Positions 4,750 to 61,581 of a DNA stretch of 64,000 nt are shown one piece after another. Source of the stretch: Candidatus Poribacteria bacterium (GTDB lineage Bacteria > Poribacteria > WGA-4E > WGA-3G); the NCBI GenBank assembly GCA_965214095.1, contig OZ243938.1:3936001-4000000 (forward strand). Direction: 5' to 3'. The notes beneath the pieces were generated by a model. It was not told where the DNA came from. It saw only the letters and a program-made list of their open reading frames with translations, and searched no databases. The translations under genes were made by a program, and so were the position numbers. Numbering within the stretch: position 1 is the stretch's first letter; every line of letters begins with the position of its first letter.

Positions 4750-6222
4750 ATGGAAAATCAAAAACTACCAAACATCGTTTTTATTATGGCAGATGACATG
4801 GGGTATGGTGATGTTGGCTGCTATAATCCTGATTCAAAAATACCCACACCAAACATGGATCAACTTGCACAAGATGGAATCCGCTTTACAGACGCACATT
4901 CTCCCTCAGCAGTATGTACCCCCACACGATACGGTGTCTTAACTGGCAGATATTGCTGGCGCAGCCGTCTAAAACGTGGTGTGCTTTACGGATACGAACC
5001 CCCATTAATTGAACCTGAACGTCTGACAGTCGCTGGACTGCTGAAAGATGCAGGATACAACACTGCATGTATCGGTAAATGGCATTTAGGTCTTGGATTC
5101 TCTACGAAATCGGACTACGACTTCAACTTTGATGCACCACTACCGTGGGGTAATGCCAAACGCGAATTGGAAGAAAATATCGATTTTCACGCACCAATCA
5201 CAGGTGGACCAAATGATATCGGTTTCGATTATTTCTACGGCACATCGGGGTGTCCAACCTGCCAACCCCCTTACGGATTCATAGAAAACGATACTTTTGT
5301 TAAAGTACCGAATGAATATCGTGGAGAACCTGATTTCACGGGGCGTCCCGGTATGACTGCACCGAGTTGGCAGCATAAAGATGCAGACCCAATGATTGCT
5401 CAGAAAACAGTTGAATATATTGAGACACAAGCCAATTCTGAAGATCCATTCTTCATCTATATGACCCCTTCCGCTCCACATGAACCTTGTGTTGAAGAGG
5501 TTGTGCCAGACTTTGCACGCGGACAGAGTGATGCTGGACCGCGTGGAGATTTAGTTTGGTTAGTAGACTGGATGGTCGGGGAAGTCATGGACGCATTAGA
5601 CCGAACCGGAAAAACTGACGACACACTAATAATCGTTACAAGTGATAACGGAGCACTCCCCGGAGACAGAATTAAGGGTGGGAAAGGTCCAATGCCGTAT
5701 AATATCTACGACCACAAGTCGTGTGGAGATTGGCGTGGATACAAAGCACATATCTGGGAAGGCGGACACCGCGAACCCTTCATCGCAAGATGGCCAAACG
5801 TGATAGAACAGAATACCACATCAGATGAATTAGTGTGCTTAACGGATCTCATGGAAACGTGTGCAGCAATAGTCGGAACAGATGTTCCGGATGATGCTGG
5901 ACAAGATAGTTGTAATATCCTACCAGCACTCTTAGGAAAAGAAACCGATCACCAACTTCGTAAAGCAATTGTGCATCACTCCAGTAACGGTGTCTTTTCT
6001 ATACGTCACGAAGAATGGAAATTGATTATAGGCACGGAAGGATCAGGAGGATGGCCCCCACCAAGTGGCGGTGGTCCCAAACCAGATTCTCCTGGACAAT
6101 TATATCACATTCATGATGACCCGTCCGAAACAGAAAATCTATGGTCTACGCATCCAGATATTGTTGATAGGTTAACACAGTTATTGGAGAAGTTTGAACA
6201 AGAAGGACACAGTAGAATGTGA
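4750..6222 (+). CDS. Arylsulfatase (Cys-type, formylglycine-dependent)
   Basis: PNIVFIMADDMGYGD, CTPTR (CxPxR), GKWHLG, SDNG. Confidence 0.92.
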   Translation: MENQKLPNIVFIMADDMGYGDVGCYNPDSKIPTPNMDQLAQDGIRFTDAHSPSAVCTPTRYGVLTGRYCWRSRLKRGVLYGYEPPLIEPERLTVAGLLKDAGYNTACIGKWHLGLGFSTKSDYDFNFDAPLPWGNAKRELEENIDFHAPITGGPNDIGFDYFYGTSGCPTCQPPYGFIENDTFVKVPNEYRGEPDFTGRPGMTAPSWQHKDADPMIAQKTVEYIETQANSEDPFFIYMTPSAPHEPCVEEVVPDFARGQSDAGPRGDLVWLVDWMVGEVMDALDRTGKTDDTLIIVTSDNGALPGDRIKGGKGPMPYNIYDHKSCGDWRGYKAHIWEGGHREPFIARWPNVIEQNTTSDELVCLTDLMETCAAIVGTDVPDDAGQDSCNILPALLGKETDHQLRKAIVHHSSNGVFSIRHEEWKLIIGTEGSGGWPPPSGGGPKPDSPGQLYHIHDDPSETENLWSTHPDIVDRLTQLLEKFEQEGHSRM

Positions 6223-6230
6223 GGGAACTT

Positions 6231-7061
6231 ATGTCAATCAAACCTAATTCACTTTTTCGTTTATCAACGCCATCCAATCAAGACATAGAGTCGTTTCATA
6301 ATGATGGATATATCGCATATCCAGATATATTCACGGACGATGGCAGAGAAGGTTTAATTGAGGAAATAACGCATCAATTTGAACCGACGCGTCAATACAT
6401 TGCGGCATTAGAGGACGGTGAAACACCGGAACGTGCTTATTTTATTCGTCCATGGAACGAACGTAGAATATATAGCGACAGACTTATTGACGATCCCTTC
6501 ATTACGGCACTGTTACGTGCAACCATTGGTGACGCATACCACTACTGTCATTCTGCACTTAACATTGCACCCCGTGGGATCGGACCTATCCAGTTTCATC
6601 AAGACCATCACCATTGGAAGCATGAGAATCCTGTCAATCTTGCCGAACGTGATAACTACTACATTCAGATATTATATTATCCGAATGGTTTCACGCGGGG
6701 TGATCGCAACTTGAAAGTGATAGCGGGTAGTCACAAGGTTGCACCAACGGCAGAAGCAACACCAGAACGAATGCTTGCTGGTGAATTCGACGAGGAAGCA
6801 GGACGTAAACTGGAAGAGAAACGGCTCGATCTGCCACCAGGGAGTATGGTCTACATAGACGCACGCATTTTCCACGGCGTAGAAGCAAAACCTGTAGATT
6901 CCCCGCAATTATATCGCATCTTTGTGATAGACATATTCAAAGAAGCAGGTCCACCGCATCGATACACACAACACATACCCCCTGAATGGCTGGAAGACAC
7001 AACACCATACCGTAAAAAGTTATTTACTCGGGATGGCTACGTAGAAGGCTGTTGGAACTGA
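6231..7061 (+). CDS. PhyH family Fe/2OG dioxygenase
   Basis: FHNDGY, FHQD (HxD), VIAGSHK, distal IFHG. Confidence 0.85.
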   Translation: MSIKPNSLFRLSTPSNQDIESFHNDGYIAYPDIFTDDGREGLIEEITHQFEPTRQYIAALEDGETPERAYFIRPWNERRIYSDRLIDDPFITALLRATIGDAYHYCHSALNIAPRGIGPIQFHQDHHHWKHENPVNLAERDNYYIQILYYPNGFTRGDRNLKVIAGSHKVAPTAEATPERMLAGEFDEEAGRKLEEKRLDLPPGSMVYIDARIFHGVEAKPVDSPQLYRIFVIDIFKEAGPPHRYTQHIPPEWLEDTTPYRKKLFTRDGYVEGCWN

Positions 7062-7117
7062 TTCATGGTTAATATACCATAATTATGGTTTAGACAGTTT
7101 GCCATCATTGATGTTGT

Positions 7118-7560
7118 TATACCCATTCCAAAAAATGACTTCGCTTAAAGAAATAGGCTGATTGTAGTCGCGCAATTCATTGTGCCTCGGACATTTATGG
7201 TGAAGTAAAAAATAATTATGCACACCACTGTAGGAGCGATCTCCAATTTGCGACTTAACTCAGGGGTAATCGGAAATCGGATTCTCTCCTACATTTCCAA
7301 AATGTCCAATTAATTCAAGAATCTACCAATTAAAAAGTGAAATTCATTTTTAGAATTGGTATTATAGTGAATTATAAATATAAGTTGACACTTTCGACCC
7401 ACGGTAGGCGAGGTTTCCTAACCTCGCCGATGCAGAGTGTTCAAGTAATTTCAAAATCTACTATAGTAGATCACATACCTATTAGAGTATATCGTCCCAT
7501 AAGGAAATCATCCATACATTGAGGAATGTAAGAGACACAATGAATTGCACGACTACAAAC
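7118..7560. repeat. Cluster of nested REP-like palindromes and MITE-like inverted repeats
   Basis: TTGTAGTCGCGCAATTCATTGTGCCTC (7162-7188) pairs with 7532-7558; TGTAGGAG...CTCCTACA 7229-7293; TATAGT...ACTATA element 7363-7467 containing CGGTAG-GCGAGGTT-TCCT-AACCTCGC. Confidence 0.65.
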
Positions 7561-7589
7561 GCATTGATTATTTTATAGAGTGATTTACC

Positions 7590-8813
7590 ATGTCAAATAG
7601 AGGCGAATTTATTGATCTTATAAACGAATTTAAAAGAGTTTCACCGTCTATTTCTGATGAACAACGGAAGGGACTTCTTCGGAGGGGAGTCCAACAGTTC
7701 GGTATTGGAATGGATGATGCGATTGAAATCTTGAACGCATCTGGTTTGGTAATTGGTGAGAGTATTGATTATTATGAAGTGTTGGGATTATCAAGGGCGG
7801 GTTTTGAAACACGAAGTGAGTCGGAAATTGTTAATCAGGTTAGGGGCGCACACGAAAAACTATATAGTGCTTCGTTGAAAGCAGGGGGACGACCTCGTGC
7901 TGATGGTAGGACGGAGGAGCAGTGGCGGACACTCCTCAATCAGGCACGCGATGCACTCATCGATCCAGAATCACGAAACGCACCACTCATAGCTGCAGAT
8001 TTTGTAGAAGAGGAGGCAGAGAAACCACCTGTTCCTTTACATCTTCTTGAGGACATGGAGCTTATACCTGCAGGTGCGTTTAAAATGGGTGGCAGTGATG
8101 ACGAAGCATTTCAAGATGAATTGCCGGTTCATGATGTTTACCTTGATGCATTCTATATTGACAAATATCCTGTAACCAATGCACAATTCAAGGAATTCGT
8201 TGATGCGAACCCACTATGGGACAAACCGCGCGGCTTCACATTTTTTCATTCTTTTAAATATTACGATGGATATTACCTACACCATTGGGGTAAGAATAAC
8301 TACCCAGAGGAGAGAACTGACCATCCCGTTGTTCATATCAGTTGGTATGCTGCGATGGCTTATGCACGGTGGATTGGAAAACGTTTACCTACTGAAGCAG
8401 AATGGGAGAAAGCAGCGCGTGGTGGATTGGAAGACAAAAAATATCCATGGGGTGATGTGATTGATGGTGGTAAAGCAAATTATGAAAAAAGACGTCAACA
8501 AACAACCCTTGTTGGACGTTATCCTGCAAATGGATACGGTTTATTTGATATGGTGGGTAATGTGTGGGAATGGTGTCTTGATGAGTGGGATAAGAGTTTT
8601 TATGCGTTTTCGTCAAAAGATAATCCAGTATGTGGTGGGAGTATTGAAAGAATTGTTCAAAACTATACGAATTCTAAATCACATCATGTGATACGGGGAG
8701 GATCGTGGTACAATTCAGTTGAGAATGTCCGAACTGCTAAGCGATCTGGTGTCTTGCCAACATACGCGAATTCTAACATAGGATTTCGGTGTATAATACC
8801 TGTTGCGTCATAG
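7590..8813 (+). CDS. J-domain-like + FGE-sulfatase (SUMF1/EgtB/PvdO; CLec-fold) protein, array member 1
   Basis: DYYEVLGL...PRADG...LNQARDALIDP; then PAGAFKMG, PVTNAQF, RLPTEAEWEKAARGG, NGYGLFDMVGNVWEW, RGGSW, GFRC. Confidence 0.85.
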   Translation: MSNRGEFIDLINEFKRVSPSISDEQRKGLLRRGVQQFGIGMDDAIEILNASGLVIGESIDYYEVLGLSRAGFETRSESEIVNQVRGAHEKLYSASLKAGGRPRADGRTEEQWRTLLNQARDALIDPESRNAPLIAADFVEEEAEKPPVPLHLLEDMELIPAGAFKMGGSDDEAFQDELPVHDVYLDAFYIDKYPVTNAQFKEFVDANPLWDKPRGFTFFHSFKYYDGYYLHHWGKNNYPEERTDHPVVHISWYAAMAYARWIGKRLPTEAEWEKAARGGLEDKKYPWGDVIDGGKANYEKRRQQTTLVGRYPANGYGLFDMVGNVWEWCLDEWDKSFYAFSSKDNPVCGGSIERIVQNYTNSKSHHVIRGGSWYNSVENVRTAKRSGVLPTYANSNIGFRCIIPVAS

Positions 8814-8867
8814 TATTCCTATGAATCAAACACATATCCGATATGGACAATTATTGGAGTAGTGAAC

Positions 8868-10160
8868 ATGTCTAAACGCGATGAGTTTGAAGCATTTATC
8901 AGTAGACTCAAAGCAGTTTCACCTACTATTACAGATGAACAACGAAAAGGTCTTTTGCGTCAAGCATCTTTGGAGTATGAAGTGCCAGTTGATGATGCGG
9001 TTGAGATTCTACGAATAACGGGATTGGTTGTTGGAAAAAATGATAGTTATTTTGAGATATTGGATATCTCAATTGCTGAATTCAGTAACCTAAGTGAAGA
9101 TGCCATTACTACGCATGTTAATTCTACACACAAAAAACTCTATGCAACATCTTTGGCTGCAGGTGGACTACCACGTCCTGATGGAAGGTCTCAAGAACAG
9201 TGGCGGAATGTTCTGAATGAAGCGCGTGATACATTGATTGACCCATTGAAAAGACGTGAACACATTTCCATGCTTCAACACAATACGGACGAACAAAAAA
9301 TAGATGAAACTGAAAGCATACCAACTATACAAGCATCAGAAATTGTAGATTCACCTCGTCAAGAATTGAGTCATTTAACTATACCTGATGATGTAATTGT
9401 GCCAGAAGATATGGTATTCATTCCTGCTGGTGAGTTTCTAATGGGCAGCGAGGATGAAGAGGCACAAGACGATGAACAACCGAATCATGTTGTTTTTCTT
9501 GATGCCTACCTGATGGATATATTTCCAGTGACCAATTCGGAATTTAGAGGTTTTATTGATGCTAACCCAAAATGGAGTAAAACAGATATCTATGGAGAAC
9601 ATATCTCTATAGAATTTCAGGATGGGGGTTATTTAAAAGATTGGGAGGACGATACATTCCCTGATGGTAAAGCGGAGCATCCTGTTACTCAGGTGAGTTG
9701 GTATGCTGCGATGGCGTATGCCCGGTGGGTAGGGAAACGGCTACCAACAGAAGCGGAGTGGGAAAAAGCAGCACGTGGTGGTATAGGGGGAAAGAAATAC
9801 CCATGGGGTGATTCTATCGATGGTGTTGACTTCAATTCAGACGATACTACACCGATTGGAAACACTCCTGCTAATGGTTATGGGTTATATGACATGAGTG
9901 GTAATGTGTGGGAGTGGTGTCTTGATGCTTACGATCCAGAATACTATTTAGTTTCCCCACCAAAAAATCCATTTTCAGATACAGCCAACGTGTCTTGGGT
10001 GGTGAATAACTTTAGAAATATTAAGTCTCCACGCGTTTTACGTGGTGGTCCTTGGGATATTGATTCTCAAGGTGTACGCGTTTCTCACAGATTTAGCGGT
10101 AATCCGATGGATACATTTCCTACATTTGGATTTCGATGTGTGATGGATGTGAATACTTGA
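8868..10160 (+). CDS. J-domain-like + FGE-sulfatase protein, array member 2
   Basis: Paralog with PRPDG and RLPTEAEWEKAARGG; start placed at the ATG giving MSKR as in the other members. Confidence 0.85.
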   Translation: MSKRDEFEAFISRLKAVSPTITDEQRKGLLRQASLEYEVPVDDAVEILRITGLVVGKNDSYFEILDISIAEFSNLSEDAITTHVNSTHKKLYATSLAAGGLPRPDGRSQEQWRNVLNEARDTLIDPLKRREHISMLQHNTDEQKIDETESIPTIQASEIVDSPRQELSHLTIPDDVIVPEDMVFIPAGEFLMGSEDEEAQDDEQPNHVVFLDAYLMDIFPVTNSEFRGFIDANPKWSKTDIYGEHISIEFQDGGYLKDWEDDTFPDGKAEHPVTQVSWYAAMAYARWVGKRLPTEAEWEKAARGGIGGKKYPWGDSIDGVDFNSDDTTPIGNTPANGYGLYDMSGNVWEWCLDAYDPEYYLVSPPKNPFSDTANVSWVVNNFRNIKSPRVLRGGPWDIDSQGVRVSHRFSGNPMDTFPTFGFRCVMDVNT

Positions 10161-10221
10161 GGTGTTTAGTTTTTAGTACATTTTGTATCTATTGTAATTA
10201 TAGATTATTGGAACATAAATT

Positions 10222-11502
10222 ATGTCCAAACGATTAGAATTCATAGAAGTCGTCAACACATTCAAAGAAGTATCTCCGAGTATAACCGACAATCAAAGGC
10301 GCGGGTTGCTGAGTCAAGCTGTACAGAATTATGCGCTTTCCATTGAGGATGCATCAGAGATACTCAAATCTCTCGGTCTGATAGTTGGGGAGGAAATTAA
10401 TTATTTTGAAGTGTTAGAGTTGTCAATTGAAGAATTTGAGAACAAAAGTGTAACAGAAATTGCAAATTATGTTGATGAATCACATTCACGTCTATATAGT
10501 GCATCATTGCGCGCTGGTGGACTCCCGCGTCCTGATGGTAGGTCGCAAGAACAGTGGCGGATTGTTCTGAATGAAGCGCGTGATACATTGATTGACCCAT
10601 TGAAAAGACGTGAACACCTTGCCATCATTCAAGATTCTGTAGAGATAACGGAAATAGCAGCAGAAAGCACACCAGAATTCCAAGAATCCGATATTGTCGC
10701 AGTAGAAAGACCTCGTCACGAATCAAGATATGAAACATTACCTGATGGTGTTGATGTGCCTGATGATATGGTATTTATTCCTGCAGGTGAGTTTCAGATG
10801 GACAGTGAGAACGAAGAATCTAACAATACACCCATTTCAACTCAAAATGTCTACCTAAATGGTTATCTTATTGATATTTTTCCTGTCACCAACGCACAAT
10901 ATATGAAATTTCTGGATGCTAACCCACAATGGCAGAAAAAGAATGTTCCCAGTCAGTTGCATGATGGAAGTTACTTGGAATCTTGGATTGGAAGAAGACT
11001 TCCTCGTGATAAAACAAACCATCCAGTTATCTATGTGAGTTGGTATGCTGCGATGGCTTATGCGGAATGGATTGGAAAACGATTGCCGATCAAAGCAGAA
11101 TGGGAGATGGCAGCTCGCGGAGGACTACATAGGAAGAAATATCCGTGGGGAGATAGTATCAATACAGAACAGGCGAATTACGGTATGCATATCGGTAAAA
11201 CAACAGAAGTTAATAAGTATCCACCCAATGAATATGGCATATATGATATGGTCGGAAATGTGTGGGAGTGGTGTTTGGATGAATATGACGAGAATACTAA
11301 ACATCAACGTTATGATATGATAGCAGAAAATATAGGCAATATAACGAAGGATTTTTTACAAGTTAATTCTCCTCGTATAGTCCGTGGTGGTTCTTGGGCA
11401 AGCAGTGAACGTGCCACACAGATTGCTTATTGTGGATGGGCGGCTCCGAATTTTACACATTATAATTATGGATTTCGGTGTGTGAAAGAAATTGTAAATT
11501 GA
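10222..11502 (+). CDS. J-domain-like + FGE-sulfatase protein, array member 3
   Basis: NYFEVLEL, PRPDG, RLPIKAEWEMAARGG, GFRC. Confidence 0.85.
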   Translation: MSKRLEFIEVVNTFKEVSPSITDNQRRGLLSQAVQNYALSIEDASEILKSLGLIVGEEINYFEVLELSIEEFENKSVTEIANYVDESHSRLYSASLRAGGLPRPDGRSQEQWRIVLNEARDTLIDPLKRREHLAIIQDSVEITEIAAESTPEFQESDIVAVERPRHESRYETLPDGVDVPDDMVFIPAGEFQMDSENEESNNTPISTQNVYLNGYLIDIFPVTNAQYMKFLDANPQWQKKNVPSQLHDGSYLESWIGRRLPRDKTNHPVIYVSWYAAMAYAEWIGKRLPIKAEWEMAARGGLHRKKYPWGDSINTEQANYGMHIGKTTEVNKYPPNEYGIYDMVGNVWEWCLDEYDENTKHQRYDMIAENIGNITKDFLQVNSPRIVRGGSWASSERATQIAYCGWAAPNFTHYNYGFRCVKEIVN

Positions 11503-11526
11503 GGATATTATTGGGAATCATTGTTT

Positions 11527-12891
11527 ATGGCTAACCGTGAAGAATATATCAGTGTGGTGAACACACTCAAGGCAACTTTGCCGACCATTACCACGCAGCA
11601 ACGGGTGGTGCTACTCCAACAAGCCGTGCAGCAATATGGACTTTCTGCAGAAGATGCTGAAGAAATCCTGAAAACGTCTGGATTAGTCGTTGGTGAAAGT
11701 ATGAACTACTTCCGGGTGTTAGGTTTATCTTTAGAAGAAATCCAGGATAAGAGTGAGAATGACATCCTCAGTTTTATAGAGGAAACTCATCAAAAATGTT
11801 ATGGTGAATCGTTGCGTGCGGGTGGACTGCCGCGTCCAGATGGCAGAACACAAGAACAGTGGCGAACAGTTTTGAATCAAGCGCGGGATGTGCTGAAAGA
11901 TCCACAAAAAAGAGTGGAACACATAGCAATCGTAAATACTGAAACTTCACATTTTGATGAGACATTTCCACAAGATGGATTGCCGAATTTGAATCAAACT
12001 TCAATTCAACTTGCTATACCAGAAGATATGATGTTGATCCCAGAAGGTGAATACCGTGGGAGAAGTGTTGAATCTTCTTTAGGAGATTCTAAATTTGACA
12101 CCCCTGATCATACAATTCATGTTGATACGTTCTATATGGACAAATTCCCAGTAACGAATGCACAATTTAAGGAGTTTACAGATGCCAATCCGTTATCGAG
12201 AAAAACAACAAGACGTAATGAATGGAACAAAATCAAACAGAAAATGTCTATTTTTAGTAGGTTTCACGATGGAAACTACTTAAATCATTGGTATGAGAAT
12301 AATTTTCCAATTGGTATGGAAAACCATCCGGTCACTAATGTGAGTTGGTATGCGGCAATGGCTTATGCACAATGGGCAGGAAAACGTTTACCCTCTGAAG
12401 CGGAATGGGAAAAGGCCGCACGTGGTGGATTAATTGGACAACACTATCCTTGGGGTGATAACCTGGATCCTGACATGGCTCATTGTGGAAAAAGTGTCGG
12501 TACGACCTATTCTGTTGGACTATACCCACCAAACAACTACGGTTTACATGACATTGCAGGGAATGTATGGGAGTGGTGTCTGGATGAGTATGCATTGAAT
12601 TTCTATGCGACATCACATAAACAAAATCCTATTGCTGGTGCTAACACGGTAGAGGAATTGGATGAATTATTGAGCAATTTTAGAGTTTTCTCAACTGACC
12701 GTGTTCTAAGAGGAGGGACGTTGTTCACAACATCAGAACCGATGCCAATTGCCAATCGGTATGGTTGTTCACCTCTTAACACAATCCTACGTATTAGGCT
12801 TTTAGTAATACGGCAACCTACGTCTTCTACAAAGTTTGCTGCACATGTTGGGTTTAGATGTGCTTGGGATGTTCGGTTAAAATCGTATTGA
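11527..12891 (+). CDS. J-domain-like + FGE-sulfatase protein, array member 4
   Basis: NYFRVLGL, PRPDG, RLPSEAEWEKAARGG; long insertion before GFRC. Confidence 0.85.
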   Translation: MANREEYISVVNTLKATLPTITTQQRVVLLQQAVQQYGLSAEDAEEILKTSGLVVGESMNYFRVLGLSLEEIQDKSENDILSFIEETHQKCYGESLRAGGLPRPDGRTQEQWRTVLNQARDVLKDPQKRVEHIAIVNTETSHFDETFPQDGLPNLNQTSIQLAIPEDMMLIPEGEYRGRSVESSLGDSKFDTPDHTIHVDTFYMDKFPVTNAQFKEFTDANPLSRKTTRRNEWNKIKQKMSIFSRFHDGNYLNHWYENNFPIGMENHPVTNVSWYAAMAYAQWAGKRLPSEAEWEKAARGGLIGQHYPWGDNLDPDMAHCGKSVGTTYSVGLYPPNNYGLHDIAGNVWEWCLDEYALNFYATSHKQNPIAGANTVEELDELLSNFRVFSTDRVLRGGTLFTTSEPMPIANRYGCSPLNTILRIRLLVIRQPTSSTKFAAHVGFRCAWDVRLKSY

Positions 12892-12937
12892 ATATTATTC
12901 TTAACTCTTGTTTCGTTTGTATTTGGTTGATTTAGGT

Positions 12938-14281
12938 ATGTCAAAAAGAGAAGAATTCATCGCAGCAATTAATGTCCTTCGGGCTGCTTCTCAGTCTATT
13001 ACCCCAGAACAGCGAAAAGGACTTCTTCAACAGGCGGTACAGGAATATGGTCTTACGGTAGATGAGGGAACGGCAATATTAAATGCTTCAGGATTGATAG
13101 TGGGTGAAAGAATAAACTATTTAGAAGTATTAGGATTGACTTTAGATGAAATAGAAAAGAAGAACGATGCTGATATTTTGGTTCTCGTTAATGAAGCACA
13201 TCGAAAAGCGTATAATGGTTCGTTACAGGCTGGTGGATTACCTCGTGCGGATGGCAGAACACAGGCACAGTGGCGCACTTTATTAAATCAGGCGCGTGAT
13301 ACGTTGACACACCCTCATAAACGTCGTCATTATCTGGAAAAATACGTGCTCCAGGAAAACGTATCAAAGAAAACTGAAGAATCTAACCCAAAAATAGAAC
13401 TTGAAATACAAAAACCTAAATCAACTTTACCAAAACCACCGCAAACTACTATAAGGACTACGTTATCCAATGTCAGTTCTACCCAAAAGGTGCAACCTCC
13501 CGAAAATACGCCTCAATCCATGGTATTCATTCCCGGTGGTGAGTTTCTGATGGGAAGCGATGAAAATTTGATACATTCTGCCTATGTGGATTCATTTTTT
13601 ATGGACAGATACCCTGTCACTAACGCACAATTCAAGATGTTCGTAGAGGCTAATCCACAATGGCGTAGACCTACTGACTTGTATTTTTGGAACATAAAGT
13701 GGAACTCAACTAAGAAAAAACCTGAACACGATGGTGATTACTTGAAACATTGGCATGAGAACAATTATCCGGATGACAAAGCAAATCATCCTGTGACGTG
13801 GGTGAGTTGGTATGCTGCAATGGCTTATGCGGAGTGGTTAGGTAAACGTTTACCTACAGAAGCGGAATGGGAGAAAGCTGCTCGTGGTGGTGTGTCTGGA
13901 CAGAATTATCCTTGGGGAAACACAATTGATTCTACGATGGCAAACTATAGCAACACGAATGGTGGCACGGCTGAAGTTGGGCAATATCCAGCAAACGGAT
14001 ACGGTCTCTATGATATGGCAGGAAATATATGGGAGTGGTGTCTTGATGTGTATGATGCTGGTTTTTATCTAAATTCACCCCAACACAATCCTATTTCTGG
14101 TGCGAATTCAGTCAACTCTGTTACAAACGAATTTACTGATGAAAGTGTGCTACGTGTTTTGCGTGGTGGTTCTTGGCTTGATGCACCTCATTTATTGAAA
14201 ACTGCTTTCCGTTATAAGAATAATCCGAGACGTACTCTCGGAAGAATCGGTTTTCGTTGTGTTAGAACTGTTCCTGCTTAA
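12938..14281 (+). CDS. J-domain-like + FGE-sulfatase protein, array member 5
   Basis: NYLEVLGL, PRADG, Pro/Thr-rich linker, FGE motifs. Confidence 0.85.
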   Translation: MSKREEFIAAINVLRAASQSITPEQRKGLLQQAVQEYGLTVDEGTAILNASGLIVGERINYLEVLGLTLDEIEKKNDADILVLVNEAHRKAYNGSLQAGGLPRADGRTQAQWRTLLNQARDTLTHPHKRRHYLEKYVLQENVSKKTEESNPKIELEIQKPKSTLPKPPQTTIRTTLSNVSSTQKVQPPENTPQSMVFIPGGEFLMGSDENLIHSAYVDSFFMDRYPVTNAQFKMFVEANPQWRRPTDLYFWNIKWNSTKKKPEHDGDYLKHWHENNYPDDKANHPVTWVSWYAAMAYAEWLGKRLPTEAEWEKAARGGVSGQNYPWGNTIDSTMANYSNTNGGTAEVGQYPANGYGLYDMAGNIWEWCLDVYDAGFYLNSPQHNPISGANSVNSVTNEFTDESVLRVLRGGSWLDAPHLLKTAFRYKNNPRRTLGRIGFRCVRTVPA

Positions 14282-14382
14282 GTGTCAATGTTTCTGTCAT
14301 TTTTCTTGTATTTCGTCTTATGCTGTGCTAAAATTCGTATATTGAATGCACTTCTATTCTATCTGTTGAGGAGGAAGGCAAC

Positions 14383-14721
14383 ATGAAACTTTATCAAGTG
14401 ACAAAGGTGATTGATGGGGATACGTTTGAGGTGGACCCTCCGATTTCCAAGGATATTGATCTACTACCATTGATGAGACAAGTTGGTAATATAAGTTTAT
14501 ACACAAAAGTTCGCATAGCAAATATTAATGCTTCAGAGATTAATACTCCTTTGGGTGAAAAAGCGATGCTTTACTTGAGAGGGCTTTTGGAAGGAAAACG
14601 CGTAATACTCAAACCAACTGATATTTCCTATGATCGTGTTGTCGCAGATGTGTGGCGATACCCAAATCAAGTATTCATAAGTGCAATGATGGTCTATAGT
14701 GGATATGCAGAGTGGGTATAA
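14383..14721 (+). CDS. Thermonuclease (staphylococcal nuclease-like) protein, no signal peptide
   Basis: VTKVIDGDTF, VRIANINASE, YDRVVADV, MVYSGYA; strong GAGGAGG RBS. Confidence 0.8.
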   Translation: MKLYQVTKVIDGDTFEVDPPISKDIDLLPLMRQVGNISLYTKVRIANINASEINTPLGEKAMLYLRGLLEGKRVILKPTDISYDRVVADVWRYPNQVFISAMMVYSGYAEWV

Positions 14722-14759
14722 TTCAAATGTAATAGATTAAAGTAATTAATCATACTATC

Positions 14760-15110
14760 GTGGTGAATCAGATGAATTATCTAAATGACTTTCCGAACCT
14801 AATAGCAGATCAAGTAAAAATTTCACTTGGTTCTAAAAAACTCTTAAACATTGATGATGATAGACTACTTCGATCTATAGTTTTAGATGCTGCAGGACAC
14901 GTTATAGGGGTCATAGTGAATCGGATTAGAGATGGAAACAATGCAAGTATTCATTCACAAGGAACTACAGCTTTTCAAGGTGTAATCAGTGAAGTTTCAA
15001 AAAACTTGTTTGAAAAAGCACTTGACGAGTCCACAATTTCACAGGCGATCACTTTATTGAAAACGGAACAGAAAAATTATAGGAATCAGATAACAGGTAA
15101 AAATAATTGA
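14760..15110 (+). CDS. Hypothetical helical protein
   Basis: 116-aa ORF co-oriented between the nuclease and the DUF2971-like gene; no recognised motif; start uncertain. Confidence 0.5.
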   Translation: MVNQMNYLNDFPNLIADQVKISLGSKKLLNIDDDRLLRSIVLDAAGHVIGVIVNRIRDGNNASIHSQGTTAFQGVISEVSKNLFEKALDESTISQAITLLKTEQKNYRNQITGKNN

Positions 15111-15210
15111 TATAAATGTTCTGTTGTATTGATTGTTGTTGAGCAATAAACTAAGAATTTCCCGTAGAAATAAATGGTCAAGGAATTTAAAACGAATAAC
15201 ATATACTGTG

Positions 15211-15993
15211 ATGTCAGATTTTCATTCTACTGTTTGCGTTCACGATACGTTGTCTATGAATTCTATTTTGTGGAGATATATGGACTTCACAAAACTCCTA
15301 TCAATTCTTGAAAACAAAGCACTGTTTTTTGCAAGAGCAGACAAACTCGGAGACCCATTTGAGGGTTCTGTCCCAAAATCCAACATTACTTCACGTTCAA
15401 TCTTAAATCCTGATTTTACAGATGATGAGATAATCATGTATGGATTAATAATGCAGCAGTTACCACGATTTTCATTGATTAGTTGTTGGCATGAAAGCAC
15501 TTACGAATCTGAAGCGATGTGGAAATTGTATACAAGTGTGAATGGCGGCATTGCTATAAGATCAAATCTCAATACGCTAATAAAATCTCTCAAGGTTAAT
15601 GAAAAAATCCATATTGGAAAGGTACAATACGTTGACTATGAGAATGATAGGATATCTGAAGACGATCTGTTATTTCCATATCTACATAAACGAAAAAGTT
15701 TTGAGCATGAACATGAAGTGAGAGTCATCATTCAGAAACTTCCTATCGGTTTGGATTTGGTCAGAATAAGAGATCACATTGACACTTTATCATTAAGAGA
15801 AATAGATCAATGGCATGATATTTGTCCTCACGGTATTCACTATGAAGTTGAACTTAATCTCTTGATTGAAGAGATAGTGATTGCACATTTTGCTCCAGAA
15901 TGGTTACTTGATCTCGTCCAACAAGTCGCGAAACGCTACGGTTTGGAAGCACCTATAAATAGATCTGTCCTTGCGGATATACCGTCATGGTGA
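15211..15993 (+). CDS. DUF2971-like protein
   Basis: LWRYMDFTK, DPFEG, ISCWH...ESEAMWKLY, GIAI, IGKVQY, KRKSFEHEHEVR; start uncertain (ORF opens at 15133). Confidence 0.75.
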   Translation: MSDFHSTVCVHDTLSMNSILWRYMDFTKLLSILENKALFFARADKLGDPFEGSVPKSNITSRSILNPDFTDDEIIMYGLIMQQLPRFSLISCWHESTYESEAMWKLYTSVNGGIAIRSNLNTLIKSLKVNEKIHIGKVQYVDYENDRISEDDLLFPYLHKRKSFEHEHEVRVIIQKLPIGLDLVRIRDHIDTLSLREIDQWHDICPHGIHYEVELNLLIEEIVIAHFAPEWLLDLVQQVAKRYGLEAPINRSVLADIPSW

Positions 15994-16037
15994 TTCAAAA
16001 TACAAAAAAACATCTCAGAATCAGCAATCATAAAAAC

Positions 16038-17330
16038 ATGAACCAACATAACACAGAACGCGAAGAATTCATTTCAGTCATCAATACCCTCAAAGGACTT
16101 TCATCAACGATTACCGATGAACAGCGCAAAGCACTACTGCAGCAAGCAGTACAACAAAACGGTTTCTCTGTTGAGGAAGCGATTGACATTCTCAAAGCGG
16201 CAGGATTAGCAGTCCGCGAGAACGTTAACTTCTTTGAAGTGTTGGGACTGTCCATTGATAAACTTCAAAACCAAGACGAAACTACAATAGCTAGACTCGT
16301 GAATGATGCACACAAGAGTTTCTACAGTGCATCTTTAAAGGCAGGTGGACTTCCGCGAACAGATGGCAGGACACAGGAACAGTGGAGAAGTGTCTTGAAT
16401 CATGCGCGTGATACACTTCTAAATCCGCAGACACGTCTTGAACACATCACAGATGTTCAATCAGATAAATCGGAAGATGGTTATTCCGCTTGGCAAGCAG
16501 ATCCAAGGACTTTTGAACAAGATGAAATCACAACACACGATCCGAAACCTATAGCTGTCTCTATTCCTGATGATATGGTCCTCGTTCCAGCAGGCGAGTT
16601 CTTAATGGGAAGTGACCATTTGGAACATAAAGTCTATGTTGACGCATTTTATATTGATAAGTATCCTGTAACAAATGCACAATATATGAGATTCATTGAG
16701 GAAAACCCACAGTGGCGTAAACCATCAAAACGAGACACAAAAAGTAGAACCAAACAGAAAATACCTTCTATACTTAGTAAATATCACGGAGGAAACTATC
16801 TGAATGATTGGGATGGAAACGTTTTACCGCCTGGGAAAGAAGACCATCCAGTTACTCACATCAGTTGGTATGCGGCGATGGCGTATACGGAGTGGATAGG
16901 GAAACGACTACCAACAGAAGCTGAATGGGAAAAGGCTGCACGCGGAGGTGTCTCTTCGCTAAGATACCCATGGGGCAATGTCTTGGATTCAGAGAACGCT
17001 GAATGTGAGATGAAGGTTGGAGAAACACATCGTATTGGAAGATTTCCTGCCAACAACTACGGTGTACATGACATGGTCGGTAACACATGGGAATGGTGTC
17101 TTGATTTGTATGCCGCAGATGAAAATATTGAGAATATTATAACAGGTTACTTGGACGTTTTATCTGATCGAGTGCTGCGTGGTGGAACACAGTCTATTTC
17201 GTCCGAACCGATCCACACGGCTGCACGGCGACATAGCAATCCGAAATACACCATAGTACTTCCAATATCACACCATACTAATTTCGTTGCAAACACTGGA
17301 TTCCGATGTGTTTGGGGAACCCTTGTATAA
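16038..17330 (+). CDS. J-domain-like + FGE-sulfatase protein, array member 6
   Basis: NFFEVLGL, PRTDG, RLPTEAEWEKAARGG, GFRC. Confidence 0.85.
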   Translation: MNQHNTEREEFISVINTLKGLSSTITDEQRKALLQQAVQQNGFSVEEAIDILKAAGLAVRENVNFFEVLGLSIDKLQNQDETTIARLVNDAHKSFYSASLKAGGLPRTDGRTQEQWRSVLNHARDTLLNPQTRLEHITDVQSDKSEDGYSAWQADPRTFEQDEITTHDPKPIAVSIPDDMVLVPAGEFLMGSDHLEHKVYVDAFYIDKYPVTNAQYMRFIEENPQWRKPSKRDTKSRTKQKIPSILSKYHGGNYLNDWDGNVLPPGKEDHPVTHISWYAAMAYTEWIGKRLPTEAEWEKAARGGVSSLRYPWGNVLDSENAECEMKVGETHRIGRFPANNYGVHDMVGNTWEWCLDLYAADENIENIITGYLDVLSDRVLRGGTQSISSEPIHTAARRHSNPKYTIVLPISHHTNFVANTGFRCVWGTLV

Positions 17331-17396
17331 ATCATAGGGACACTTCAGATTTGGATTCCATCTCCAGCTCTGCTCTATAAAATGGATCACTAAGTT

Positions 17397-18758
17397 ATGT
17401 CTAAACGTGAAGAATTCAAAATAGCCATAGATCTACTCAGCACTGCTTCTCAGTCAATCTCAGCAGATCAACGGGTTGGTTTGCTTCAACAAGCAGTACG
17501 ACAGTATGGTCTCTCTATTGATGAAGCGGACGAAATCTTAAAGTTATCAGGGTTAGTTGTCGGAGAGATTTTCAATTATTTTGATGTTCTCAATCTCAAC
17601 CTTGAGGAACTTCAAAACCAAAGTGAATCTACCATTAGGAAGTGGATTGACATAGCGCACAAAAAAGCCTATAGTGCATCTTTAAAGGCAGGTGGACTTC
17701 CAAGACCAGATGGCAGGACACAAGAACAGTGGCGGACAGTTTTGAACCAAGCACGTGACATACTTCTAAATCCACAGACACGTCTTGAACACATTTCTAC
17801 GATACAGAATGATACCTGGGAAACAGTTGATCCTATTTGGCAAGAAGAATTACCTATACCAGAACAGGATGAAATTCTCAACCCGGATCCAACCTCACTA
17901 AGCATCCCAATTCCAGATGATATGGTTCTCATTCCAGCAGGTGAATTTCTAATGGGGAGTAAGAATGAGAATGCTGATGACCGTGAAAAGCCGATACATA
18001 ATGTCTATGTTGATGCGTTTTGTATTGATAAATATCCAGTAACAAACAGACAATACAAAGAGTTCATTGATGCAAACACGAATTGGCAAAAACCTACTAA
18101 ACAGTTTAGACGTAAAAAAACCAGACAGATGGTGAATTCTATACTCAGGAAGTATCATGGTCGAAACTATCTGACTGATTGGATTGAGAACGATTATCCA
18201 AAAGAAAAAGCCAACCATCCCGTAACTCATGTGAGTTGGTATGCTGCGATGGCTTATGCGGAATGGATAGGTAAACGGTTACCGACAGAGGCGGAATGGG
18301 AGAAGGCAGCACGCGGAGGAACAGTAGCACGAAAATATCCATGGGGAAATAGGATTGATCCTGCTAATGCTGAATATAGTAAGGATGTCGGTGAAACATA
18401 TCCTGTTGGAAAATATCCTGCAAATAACTACGGTGTGCATGACATGGTTGGCAACGTTTGGGAGTGGTGTTTGGATTTATATGATGCAGATTACTATGCT
18501 AATTCTACCATTCGCAATCCAATTGCCGGTGTGAATACAGATGAAGATATGAAGATGTTAAAATCTGGTTTTTTGAACATGAAGGCAGATCGCGTGCTAC
18601 GGGGTGGTACACATTTTACTTCATCAGAACCTATCCATATCGCTGCACGTTGGGGTGGGAAACCTCTTCTAACAAGTTATATCAGCACTTTATATTTCTC
18701 ACAGTATATGGCAAACATAGGGTTTCGATGTGCATGGGACGTAAGGTTTAAATCATAG
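17397..18758 (+). CDS. J-domain-like + FGE-sulfatase protein, array member 7
   Basis: NYFDVLNL, PRPDG, RLPTEAEWEKAARGG, GFRC. Confidence 0.85.
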   Translation: MSKREEFKIAIDLLSTASQSISADQRVGLLQQAVRQYGLSIDEADEILKLSGLVVGEIFNYFDVLNLNLEELQNQSESTIRKWIDIAHKKAYSASLKAGGLPRPDGRTQEQWRTVLNQARDILLNPQTRLEHISTIQNDTWETVDPIWQEELPIPEQDEILNPDPTSLSIPIPDDMVLIPAGEFLMGSKNENADDREKPIHNVYVDAFCIDKYPVTNRQYKEFIDANTNWQKPTKQFRRKKTRQMVNSILRKYHGRNYLTDWIENDYPKEKANHPVTHVSWYAAMAYAEWIGKRLPTEAEWEKAARGGTVARKYPWGNRIDPANAEYSKDVGETYPVGKYPANNYGVHDMVGNVWEWCLDLYDADYYANSTIRNPIAGVNTDEDMKMLKSGFLNMKADRVLRGGTHFTSSEPIHIAARWGGKPLLTSYISTLYFSQYMANIGFRCAWDVRFKS

Positions 18759-18793
18759 GTGTTTTAAATAGTGATTGATCGTAAATCACCCAA

Positions 18794-18932
18794 CTATAGT
18801 GAAAATTGAAATTAACAATATACTTTACATTTAGAAAAACTCGTTTGTAGTCGCGCAATTCATTGCGCCTCTTACATTATATGCATAAGCAATTGGGATG
18901 ATATGTTTCATTAATTGTAAGTTTTACTATAA
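18794..18932. mobile_element. MITE-like element (CTATAGTGAAA...TTTTACTATAA) carrying the GTAGTCGCGCAATTCATTGCGC hairpin
   Basis: Imperfect TIRs; core 18847-18871 recurs at 7164, 57344 and 61380. Confidence 0.55.
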
Positions 18933-18951
18933 ATTGAAGGAGAGATGATAT

Positions 18952-21264
18952 ATGAAAGATACAAATGATTATGTTTTATGGTATAACAAACCCGCTGAGC
19001 AGTGGACAGACGCATTGCCTGTAGGTAATGGACGACTCGGTGCGATGGTGTTCGGTGGCGTCCAACGTGAACGAATCCAACTTAACGAAGATACGCTATG
19101 GGATGGAGGTCCTCGCGATACGAATAATCCAAAAGCTTTGGAAGCACTTCCAAAAGTTCAACAACTACTTTTTGAAGACAAAAACGAGGAAGCAACAAAA
19201 CTGGCAGGTGAAACGATGTTAGGTGTTCCACACCGAATCAAGTCCTATCAGTCTTTGGGAGACATCATCCTTGAGTTTTCACATGATGGTGATATGTCGG
19301 ACTATCGCAGAGAACTTGATTTGGACACAGGTATTGCCAAAACCACATATAATATCGGAGATACCAGCTTCAGCAGAGAAGTATTTTCAACTGCAATTGA
19401 CAATCTCATCGTCATACATATCACATGTGATACATCAGAGAATATAGTTTTTGACGCAACGATGACACGTGAACAAGACGTTACCGTTGAAGCCATCTCA
19501 GATAATCTACTGAGATTGAATGGACAGTGCGGTGATGAAGGAATGCGGTTTTCTGCATATCTGCAAGTTCTGGCACATAGTGGTGATATTGAGTCGGATG
19601 GAGACCGAATCTCTGTGAAGAATGCAAGTGATGTGACTTTACTCCTTGCTGGTGCGACAAGTTACATCAATCAGAATGATGCAAGTGGAAACCCGCATGA
19701 GTTGTGTGAAAGTTACCTTGCTGGTGTAGAAAACAAGTCTTATGATGCAATTCTATCAGAACACATTGCCGATCATCAGTCACTATTTCGACGTGTAGAT
19801 TTAAATCTTGGTACTTCCGATGCGGACAATCTACCAACTGATGAACGTTTGGCAGCGGTTAAAGAGGGAGCATCTGATCCTGGATTGGTCGCTCTATATT
19901 TCCAATATGGCAGGTATTTGCTGATGGGAAGTTCGAGACCAGGATGCTTACCAGCAAATCTGCAAGGCATCTGGAACGAACATATGCAGGCACCGTGGAA
20001 CAGTGACTTTCATACAAACATCAATCTTCAAATGAACTATTGGGTGCCGGAAATTTGCAACCTTGCGGAGTGTCATACACCACTATTTGATTTCATGGAT
20101 ACACTTGTTGAACCGGGCAATCAAACAGCGAAACGGCATTACGGTGCTGAGGGATGGGTAGTACATCATCTCACCGATGTTTGGGGGTTCACTACGCCTG
20201 CTGATGGTATCTGGGGTATATCACCTATCGGTTCTGCATGGTTGAGTGAGCATGTGTGGGAACACTATCTTTTCGGTGGTGATGTGGAATTCCTGAAAAA
20301 ACAGGCATATCCTTTGATGAAAGGTGCTGCACGTTTTATGCTTGATTTCCTAATTGAGGCACCAGAAGGAACACCGATTGCTGGGAAATTGGTTACGAAT
20401 CCATCTCACTCTCCCGAAAACAGTTTTCTGAAACCAGACGGCACACGTTCACTTTTCACCTATGCAGCAACGATTGATTTGGAGATTATTCATGAACTCT
20501 TTACAAACTGTATTGCTTGTATAGATGTGCTCGGTGAAGATGCTGACTTACGTGAAGAATTAGTTTCTGCACTTGATCGTCTTGCACCACTTCAAATAAG
20601 TGAGAAAACGGGTAGACTACAAGAATGGATATACGATTATGACGAACCAGAACCCGGTCATCGGCACATGTCGCACATGTATGGATTACATCCGAGTTGT
20701 CAGATAACACTGCGTGGGACTCCTGAGTTGGCAGCAGCAGCAAGGAAATCGTTGGAACATCGTTTGGTGCACGGCGGTGGCGGTACAGGATGGAGTCGTG
20801 CATGGTTAGTCAACTTTTTGGCAAGACTTGAGGATGGAGAGGAAGCATTTAATCATCTCCAAACACTTCTTGCAAGATGTACTTTAACGAATCTGTTTGA
20901 TACACACCCACCATTTCAGATTGATGGCAATTTTGGTGGCACTGCTGGAATCGCAGAAATGTTGTTGCAAAGCCATACAGGTGAAGTGCATCCGCTCCCC
21001 GCGCTTCCCGAAGCATGGCGAACAGGTTATGTAAAAGGTTTGCGTGCACGTGGTGGATTTGAAGTTGATATTGAGTGGGAGGATGGAAAACTCATTCAAG
21101 CACAACTATTATCTACACTTGGCAATGATTGTTGGTTTAGAACATCTGAACAGGTAAATGTGACATGCGATGGTGAAAGAATCAAGTTCTCTCAATCAAA
21201 ACATGTTGCTAATTTTCATACAGAAGCAGGAAAAACTTACACGATAATACCGACTGAAAGTTAA
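18952..21264 (+). CDS. Glycoside hydrolase family 95 (alpha-1,2-L-fucosidase-like)
   Basis: [56 protein letters not shown]. Confidence 0.92.
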
Positions 21265-57296: not shown

Positions 57297-57413
57297 TAAT
57301 ACTATTTCTAAGAAATCAGAACTCTTTAAGAAATAATTAGTTCGTAGTCGCGCAATTCATTGCGCCTCATACATTCCAAGGCAAAAGGGTAATCATCTAT
57401 AGAATTGGTATTA
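57297..57413. mobile_element. MITE-like element (TAATACTATTTCTA / TAGAATTGGTATTA) carrying the GTAGTCGCGCAATTCATTGCGC hairpin
   Basis: Imperfect TIR; right end matches 7351-7363; core at 57344-57368. Confidence 0.55.
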
Positions 57414-61379: not shown

Positions 61380-61581
61380 GTAGTCGCGCAATTCATTGCG
61401 CCTCTTACATTTAGCACCAGCGGTGCGGAAGGTGTATAGCAAACAGATATAAAAAGGAAACAAGCCCCAGCGGGGTGACAGGTGTATCGTTTTAATCCCA
61501 ATTCTAAGAAATAAAGTCGCATTAGAAGATTTACGAGGTTTTGGGAATGTCCGAGGCGCGCTTTATTGCGTCTCGGACATT
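61380..61581. repeat. REP-like palindromes
   Basis: GTAGTCGCGCAATTCATTGCGCCTC at 61380; two GC(A/C)CCAGCGG..AGGTGTAT units; hairpin AATGTCCGAGGCGC...GCGTCTCGGACATT at 61546-61581. Confidence 0.6.

Follow-up and report, generated by a model that had tools for sequence, protein, structure and literature searches.

A row of seven adaptor-like genes

This work concerns a row of seven paralogous genes (positions 7590–18758) in the genome of Candidatus Poribacteria bacterium, a sponge-associated organism, and the chaperone genes to which the row appears to belong. The window, that is, the whole stretch of DNA analysed, comprises 64,000 nucleotides of contig OZ243938.1 (GCA_965214095.1), positions 3,936,001–4,000,000 of the forward strand, and coordinates refer to it unless another locus is named. 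The seven open reading frames (ORFs) lie on the + strand, align end to end, are 46–51% identical to paralog 1 and all match the FGE-sulfatase family PF03781 (formylglycine-generating enzyme, FGE; E 7e-51 to 2e-66).

Paralog 1 (7590–8813, 407 amino acids (aa); PF03781 E 1.4e-65) displays the common plan of a three-helix domain, a J-like domain, a linker and a non-catalytic FGE-sulfatase head; its sister in the tree described below is L020_6033. It is followed by paralog 2 (8862–10160, 432 aa from a GTG, with ATG 8868 favoured by the alignment; E 2.5e-60), paralog 3 (10222–11502, 426 aa; E 7.7e-59), paralog 4 (11521–12891, 456 aa from a TTG, likely ATG 11527; E 7.2e-51), which carries a long insert in the C-terminal part of its FGE head, and paralog 5 (12908–14281, 457 aa from a TTG, likely ATG 12938; E 2e-66), which has the longest linker of the array. 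Paralog 6 (15987–17330, 447 aa, likely ATG 16038; E 1.2e-54) and paralog 7 (17397–18758, 453 aa; E 9.8e-63), whose residues 1–138 were modelled, complete the row. For four genes, then, the sequence suggests internal starts at 8868, 11527, 12938 and 16038.

An earlier note, made from the letters alone, had proposed seven co-oriented paralogs of one architecture without signal peptide or transmembrane segment. The full-length alignment and the PF03781 match in 7/7 bear out the shared architecture, and hydrophilic N-termini and a maximum Kyte–Doolittle value of 1.32 over 19-residue windows agree with the cytoplasmic prediction. Its description as a tandem array holds for the orientation of the seven genes but not for their continuity, as three unrelated ORFs lie at 14383–15993. 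Similarly, the variability of the linker was recognized correctly, while an N-terminal module clearly more conserved than the FGE core was not found (53–55% versus 63%). Mean pairwise identity among the paralogs is 53% in the three-helix domain, 55% in the J-like domain, 19% in the linker, 53% in the N-terminal part of the FGE domain, 63% in its core, 12% in the insert and 33% in its C-terminal third. Variation is therefore concentrated in the linker, one insert and the C-terminal third of the FGE domain, the region that holds the active site in true FGEs. Because the DNA identity between copies is only 60–75%, the duplications are old.

A J-domain fold in the N-terminal module

The AlphaFold2 model of paralog 7 residues 1–138, built from a seven-row alignment, reached a predicted local distance difference test (pLDDT) score of 88 and consists of a three-helix unit (1–56) and a four-helix unit (57–138). 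The latter has the four-helix J fold with its helix II/helix III hairpin. In a Foldseek search against the PDB, ranks 1–13 were all J-domain or DnaJ entries (probability 0.63–1.00 over 72–86 columns). In a VIA-align comparison with 48,161 chains, which is independent of Foldseek, 11 of the top 24 rows were explicit J-domain or DnaJ entries, with Z of 6.0–8.7 over residues ~57–138, and further rows (HscB, Jac1, Tim14-Tim16, P58IPK and CSP) are presumably J-type co-chaperones as well. The J-domain-shaped region first noticed in the letters is thus recovered in the model and in both fold comparisons, including the hairpin. A distant family member, P0122, also matches PF00226 (DnaJ) at E 1.2e-4. 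The three-helix domain gave weak fold matches (Z ~5) to ENT/EMSY, the Pex14 N-domain and RecX. Matches in a protein atlas, with best scores of at most 0.84 and the TerB/DjlA and DnaJ clusters at 0.78–0.79, serve as leads only.

The His-Pro-Asp (HPD) motif is held essential for the stimulation of Hsp70 by J proteins. The modules, which are without HPD, keep the segment YSxSLxAGGxPRxDG. A set of 50 modules, taken from this genome and from 39 related loci, shows Y92, S95, L96, A98, G99, R103, D105, G106, W112 and R113 to be invariant, although the related loci were fetched by a pattern spanning D105–W112, so that invariance within those limits is partly imposed. In an unbiased library search covering 95 J stretches, 78 have R-x-D at positions 103–105 (RPD in 39, RSD in 18), and HPD occurs in one marginal match. 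If the invariant I80 is placed on the conserved helix II Ile, whose numbering we assume as the anchor, the HPD position would fall on Y92-S93-A94. Helix II is modelled through residue 97, and R-x-D-G then lies within an enlarged 11-residue loop. This loop and the end of helix II form the most conserved part of the module.

A profile search of the whole library for the module found 130 representatives among 1.84 billion proteins. Its halves also occur in other arrangements, with the J-like domain preceding the three-helix domain in 5 representatives and standing alone in 48. The three-helix domain is itself mobile (P0027, P0038, P0039, P0048, P0052), following the J-like domain once or twice and forming a tandem pair in another protein.

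Binding heads on a common module

Catalysis by FGEs requires a pair of Cys. In a profile alignment of the array to the solved FGE 6s07, both active-site Cys stand opposite non-Cys consensus positions, in line with the observation, made from the letters, that the pair expected after RGGS is lacking. Besides the family-wide G-F-R-C cysteine, further Cys in the tail occur only in paralogs 3 and 4, one in each, and the catalytic pair was found in 0/26 FGE-domain ORFs of the genome. Among solved structures, true FGEs come closest to the heads (E 7e-53), and the array profile also matches the Treponema protein TvpA (2y3c, E 3.7e-18).

Could the heads be enzymes of another branch of the FGE family, of the EgtB/OvoA, PvdO or SenA kind, with the N-terminal module in a regulatory role? 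The NCBIfam models for EgtB, SenA, GldK and PvdO do match at E 1e-35 to 1e-17, but all scores fall far below the curated cut-offs (EgtB 123 versus 360 bits, PvdO 64 versus 500, SenA 109 versus 420 and GldK 98 versus 350), as they do for every enzyme model. Nor is a DinB-like iron-binding domain found ahead of the FGE domain, where only the helical module and an unconserved linker stand, and ten parallel copies that differ in their surfaces are more in keeping with binding than with a single reaction. We therefore regard such an enzymatic role as highly improbable.

Elsewhere the same module is fused to WD40, ankyrin, TPR, HEAT and Ig-like/DUF1573 domains (in representatives from the whole-library profile search and from a word-index search), with further fusions to PEGA with PG_binding_1, to SH3 and to PF08334. 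Judged from sequence, the FGE-fold domains are most readily seen as non-enzymatic binding heads.

A second Hsp70 and a divergent GrpE-like protein

The genome holds 11 modules in total. The other four lie 70 kb upstream of the window array on the minus strand, in a row directly behind a GrpE-like gene and an Hsp70 paralog, all on one strand; three of their heads are FGE domains and one is a seven-bladed WD40 domain. The GrpE-like protein (239 aa; PF01025 E 8e-11) is divergent and below all NCBIfam equivalog cut-offs. The Hsp70 paralog (G000:C1:3874158–3875768, 537 aa; PF00012 E 2e-123) matches profile positions 1–509 of 599 (with ends at 509–511) and is the sole Hsp70 of the genome beside the canonical DnaK. 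A canonical GrpE and three canonical DnaJ genes are encoded elsewhere in the genome.

An alignment to the DnaK of the same genome shows that the Hsp70 paralog lacks the helical lid, carries a 17-residue insert and has an altered interdomain linker. It also reads VLQVLNEPTAA where the DnaK reads VLRIINEPTAA, with Gln (Q152) in place of an Arg that we take to be E. coli R167, the residue that pairs with the Asp of HPD. Its NCBIfam scores are below every equivalog cut-off, including those for DnaK (432 versus 648 bits) and HscA (336 versus 709). A complex prediction for the Hsp70 paralog (26-row alignment) and the module (50-row alignment) scored 0.00 in two runs, which weighs neither way.

Linkage and orthology across Poribacteria

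The surroundings of the module were scanned with one genome per species, giving 42 loci, of which 40 are named as Candidatus or uncultured Poribacteria and 2 as 'uncultured bacterium'. Of these, 27/42 have the Hsp70 paralog immediately ahead of the adaptors and in the same orientation. GrpE-like ORFs were recognized in 10 loci, and rows of 1–10 adaptors are present per 20-kb locus. The module occurs in 54 of 151 sampled genomes of the phylum, nearly all in one family (52/99 besides this genome). Its two main genera have it in 31/37 and 20/57 genomes, with 1–13 matches per genome. The family is thus multi-copy and non-invariant, which answers the doubt, raised when the row was first described, that it might be single-copy and invariant across relatives.

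Among the matches listed, the Hsp70 paralog is present in 52/52 other module-bearing genomes of the family. All 19 module-less genomes listed in both searches are without it, and it is missing from 44/101 sampled genomes of the family. Both gene order and co-occurrence tie the module to the Hsp70 paralog.

Two further observations concern the Hsp70 paralog itself. In P0044 (536 aa), an Hsp70 nucleotide-binding domain (30–381) is fused to the three-helix and J-like module (403–532), which replaces the substrate-binding domain; this is a single record and a possible gene-call artefact. Nine genomes (G057, G109, G111, G118, G121, G122, G142, G153 and G154) have two Hsp70-paralog matches each. The second match is 68–76% identical to the query in eight of them, and the matches of G154 are 87% and 69% identical; a second such system may be present in these genomes.

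When 84 FGE-headed adaptors from 13 loci were placed in a quick maximum-likelihood tree, the ten that belong to this genome fell into about nine separate orthologous groups with conserved gene order. Nine of them each pair with a sister gene in locus L020, from the closest relative (genome G036). Eight of these pairs have a Shimodaira–Hasegawa-like approximate likelihood ratio test (SH-aLRT) value of 100, and paralog 7 (win_17394) has 94. Lineage-specific duplications are found at the distal end of the array, where paralog 6 (win_15963) is an extra duplicate inside the paralog 7 clade, grouping with win_17394 and L020_13332. In L020, the orthologs of both arrays form one contiguous row, and orthologs of the window genes stand in Hsp70-led rows in loci L022 and L032. 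The window array is therefore best seen as the detached distal part of an Hsp70-led row.

Proposed system and points for and against

We propose, with a probability of roughly 0.7, that one family of Poribacteria has a private Hsp70 system and that the seven genes, as its distal part, encode target-specific adaptor co-chaperones. The other components would be an exchange factor of divergent GrpE-like type and the Hsp70 paralog without a lid. Each head would bind one kind of target, and the J-like module would dock on the private Hsp70 and trigger ATP hydrolysis. The Hsp70 would then clamp the target and remodel, hold or dismantle it, and the GrpE-like protein would reset the cycle. Adaptors to a chaperone had been one of several roles suggested at first sight of the row. 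It is this role that the J fold, the GrpE-like/Hsp70 pair ahead of the four-adaptor row in this genome, the Hsp70 gene in 27/42 loci and the co-occurrence favour.

The Hsp70 paralog and the module are probably insulated from the housekeeping DnaK, DnaJ and GrpE, because the module has no HPD and the Hsp70 has a Gln at the Arg that reads it. A bolder form of the proposal, which we offer tentatively, is that the two are a rewired, orthogonal pair. The HPD–Arg contact would have been replaced on both sides, by the R-x-D-G loop and extended helix II on one and by Gln on the other, and the private Hsp70 would obey only its own adaptors. With up to 13 hard-wired heads, it could then act as a programmable unfoldase that polices foreign proteins or serves defined clients in a sponge symbiont.

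Several points weigh against the adaptor co-chaperone system. Pfam holds no family for the first ~135 residues, and PF00226 was seen in 1/7 paralogs at E 0.1, below threshold; a genome search with PF00226 found four other places and 0/11 modules, and a profile search of the module sequence against solved structures gave a chance-level match only (E 0.78). HPD between helices II and III is present in 0/50 modules, and a curated J-protein set (PMC10410713) excluded sequences in which the motif is incomplete. The structural scores are also modest. The Foldseek E-values of 0.2–1 (0.23–0.55 for ranks 1–13) are weak, and the VIA-align Z-scores are all below 9, with the tool warning that Z below 8 can mean a common helical arrangement. 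Since the genomes are closely related, their synteny and co-occurrence do not count as independent observations or amount to a statistical test. Finally, the window array lies 70 kb from the Hsp70 paralog, and the row of G036 lies ~600 kb from it, so adjacency is common but not obligatory and co-transcription is not required. What appears to count for the fold, despite the modest scores, is that one family dominates both lists of matches.

The absence of HPD admits a different explanation, in which the module does not activate Hsp70 and is instead a scaffold or brake, comparable to Tim16/Pam16 beside Tim14, or has no connection with Hsp70; on that view the linkage of the genes would be a matter of regulation, not of delivering clients. 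Tim16/Pam16, Magmas and DNAJB13 are J-like proteins that have the J fold without HPD, and they act beside an HPD-bearing partner or have lost Hsp70 activation. A Tim14-Tim16 entry is row 17 of the VIA-align list, and DNAJB13 is given as a J-like protein without HPD in PMC10410713. The unmatched PF00226 profile would fit such a module too. In the poribacterial operon, however, there is no HPD-bearing J protein nearby to regulate, and the replaced segment is strongly conserved. The peak of conservation in the loop and at the end of helix II argues for a working interface, the matching Arg is changed in the Hsp70, and co-occurrence has no exception among the genomes listed in both searches. A module that leaves Hsp70 inactive is accordingly quite unlikely in our judgement.

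Sulfatase genes near the Hsp70 operon

In 14/27 Hsp70-paralog loci (L018, L026, L033, L037–L040, L042, L044–L049), and in 12 of the 16 loci with at least 3.5 kb of upstream sequence, a sulfatase gene lies upstream of the operon on the same strand. In this genome, too, a sulfatase gene (L012 14540–15868, − strand) stands upstream of the GrpE-like/Hsp70 pair on the same strand. Three sulfatase ORFs lie within 19 kb round the Hsp70 operon, against a genome average of about 1 per 100 kb (49–53 genes). These neighbours suggest another role for the heads, which would grip unfolded sulfatases at the Cys-x-Pro-x-Arg motif, with the Hsp70 preserving the competence of these sulfatases for maturation or export. 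The heads are proposed to keep the FGE peptide groove, their nearest solved relatives are true FGEs, and the Cys pair was found in none of the genome's FGE-domain ORFs. On the other hand, the WD40, ankyrin, TPR, HEAT and Ig-like heads borne by the same module have no link to sulfatases, and the most divergent region of the paralogs is the FGE active-site region, so that no single peptide ligand is suggested. Gene order among close kin may be merely inherited, and 44/101 genomes of the family are without the Hsp70 paralog. Such a role is unlikely overall; it is kept in consideration because of the sulfatase upstream of the operon in 14/27 loci.

Two other genes belong to these surroundings. Close to the Hsp70 operon, two sulfatase genes have between them the gene of a DUF3223 protein (L012 3133–3639, + strand; PF11523 E 1.5e-17). 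The window also contains a sulfatase gene at 4750–6222, whose product has the Cys-x-Pro-x-Arg motif and no signal peptide, in a genome with ~50 sulfatase genes.

Inserted genes and the nature of the clients

Three ORFs outside the adaptor family, all on the + strand, interrupt the array. The first (14383–14721, 112 aa) is SNase-like (PF00565 E 1.6e-5), the second (14760–15110, 116 aa) matches none of Pfam, PADLOC and NCBIfam, and the third (15133–15993, 286 aa) is a DUF2971 protein (PF11185 E 2.8e-5) that also matches the PADLOC candidate defence model PDC-S31 (E 3e-20). The GC content of 35.9% over 14001–16000 is the minimum of the window, and the array of the closest relative, L020, has only ~580 bp at that point and none of the three ORFs. 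The insert 14383–15993 may be a small defence cassette.

This insertion bears on the question of whether the clients are foreign. In an immune-like form of surveillance, the heads would act as receptors, hard-wired for proteins of phages or other foreign sources, whose catch the Hsp70 would unfold or sequester. Besides the DUF2971/PDC-S31 and SNase-like genes, the lineage-specific duplications at the distal end of the array and the patchy presence in the two main genera (31/37 and 20/57, with 1–13 matches) would suit such a role. A repertoire of FGE-fold, WD40, TPR, HEAT and ankyrin heads also resembles that described for the sensors of prokaryotic conflict systems by Kaur et al. (2020; PMC7159879). 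Against this stand the approximately nine stable orthologous groups in conserved order, which indicate a fixed, maintained repertoire, and a core operon in which no nuclease, protease, TIR or pore-forming effector was found. At E 0.01, PADLOC-DB 2.0 contains no family for either the adaptor or the GrpE-like protein, and the Hsp70 matches only PDC-M61B (E 0.0012). A PADLOC scan at E 1e-5 of 56 representatives, among which P0127 (3058 aa) and the shorter ones were not included, yielded Ankyrin, HEAT and similar repeat models and no Zorya model.

Rapid diversification of the heads also finds no counterpart in the DNA. Direct repeats in 7000–19500 are only the paralogs themselves (60–75%) and a dispersed 34-nucleotide element, with no near-identical template/variable pair. 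The array was therefore rejected as the target of a diversity-generating retroelement (DGR) on the lack of a template/variable repeat in 7000–19500, no search having been made for a reverse transcriptase.

Stable one-to-one orthologous groups fit a fixed repertoire better than a fast-changing one. Within the adaptor co-chaperone system, we thus rank a fixed set of cellular clients slightly above the surveillance of foreign proteins, because the orthologous groups are stable and no effector is present. Surveillance is doubtful as it stands, and it stays in consideration because of the patchy presence, the head repertoire and the defence-like insertion.

Repeats, related DNA and transcripts

Copies of a repetitive extragenic palindrome (REP)-like dispersed repeat flank the array, upstream at 7162–7195 with an inverted copy at 7525–7561 and just downstream at 18842–18878. 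The repeat also occurs at 57344–57362 and 61380–61398. Its 19-base core is found 5 times in the window against 0.03 expected and ~177 times in the genome (at most 2 mismatches). Contigs of sequencing runs pile up or break at the copies flanking the array. The repeat was considered as a mobile-element boundary and rejected, given its ~177 genome copies and a single L012 copy at 15992 that is not at the array end. Some joints in DNA run X1 pass over the entire array (7426 to 18843 and others); they were set aside as repeat artefacts, as their sides are only 23–36 letters long and lie within the repeat.

A run labelled as viral metagenome (X5), compared over 7000–19200, contained about one fifth of the sampled words, in low-depth contigs of 90–99% identity across the array. 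These contigs are most simply cellular DNA of a relative in the sample. Metatranscriptome contigs from two libraries of one study (X20 and X22) cover parts of paralogs 1–5 and 7 at ~92–97% identity, which is a weak hint, given by a relative's contigs and with DNA carry-over uncontrolled, that the array is transcribed. None lies on 14326–15139, and there are other gaps too; such gaps do not indicate silence.

Comparison with known systems

No description of the architecture was found in the literature; the supplementary tables of PMC10410713 might list it. One close likeness is to the DnaK-DnaJ-GrpE triad with its class C J proteins, which likewise combines an Hsp70, a GrpE-type factor and a J fold joined to a targeting domain, with several J-type proteins serving one Hsp70. 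It differs from the poribacterial system in three respects. Here HPD is absent and PF00226 unmatched; the Hsp70 is lid-less, with an altered linker and Gln for Arg, and scores below the DnaK and HscA cut-offs; and the adaptor genes are arranged in tandem, with single genomes reaching 13 matches.

HscC of E. coli, the partner of DjlB and DjlC, is similarly a second, specialized Hsp70 with its own J proteins of variant motif. DjlB and DjlC are named among the HPE-bearing J proteins in PMC10410713. Whereas HPE keeps the His and the Pro, the whole motif is gone here, and one or two partners there, without FGE-fold heads, compare with a row of 4–13 here. The HscC model is absent from the NCBIfam results for the paralog, whose relatedness to HscC had no dedicated test.

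A dedicated HSP70 and GrpE are also encoded beside J-domain fusion proteins in the accessory GAP1-N2 GTPase conflict systems, as described by Kaur et al. (2020; PMC7159879). Those systems have a GTPase at their centre, are found chiefly in actinobacteria and firmicutes, and have DnaJ fused to FNIII or TPR. The poribacterial operon, in contrast, has no GTPase gene, and its J module is HPD-less and bears FGE-fold heads. The variable proteins of DGRs with an FGE/C-type-lectin fold (TvpA, 2y3c) share the use of a non-enzymatic FGE fold as a binding surface and its C-terminal variation. They differ in that no template/variable pair is present here, and the diversity comes from old duplication (60–75% DNA identity) with stable orthologs.

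Significance

HPD is regarded as the switch that all J proteins use to fire Hsp70. If the proposed system is real, it would represent a second way of coupling a J protein to Hsp70, in which the motif was replaced while the fold and a dedicated Hsp70 and exchange factor were kept. A single Hsp70 served by many targeting J proteins is, moreover, an arrangement of eukaryotic style, of which this would be a rare example among bacteria, and the pair could be used as an orthogonal chaperone/adaptor pair for engineering. For the biology of sponge symbionts, the system would mean a cytoplasmic role for some of the many 'eukaryote-like' repeat and FGE-domain proteins that Poribacteria encode.

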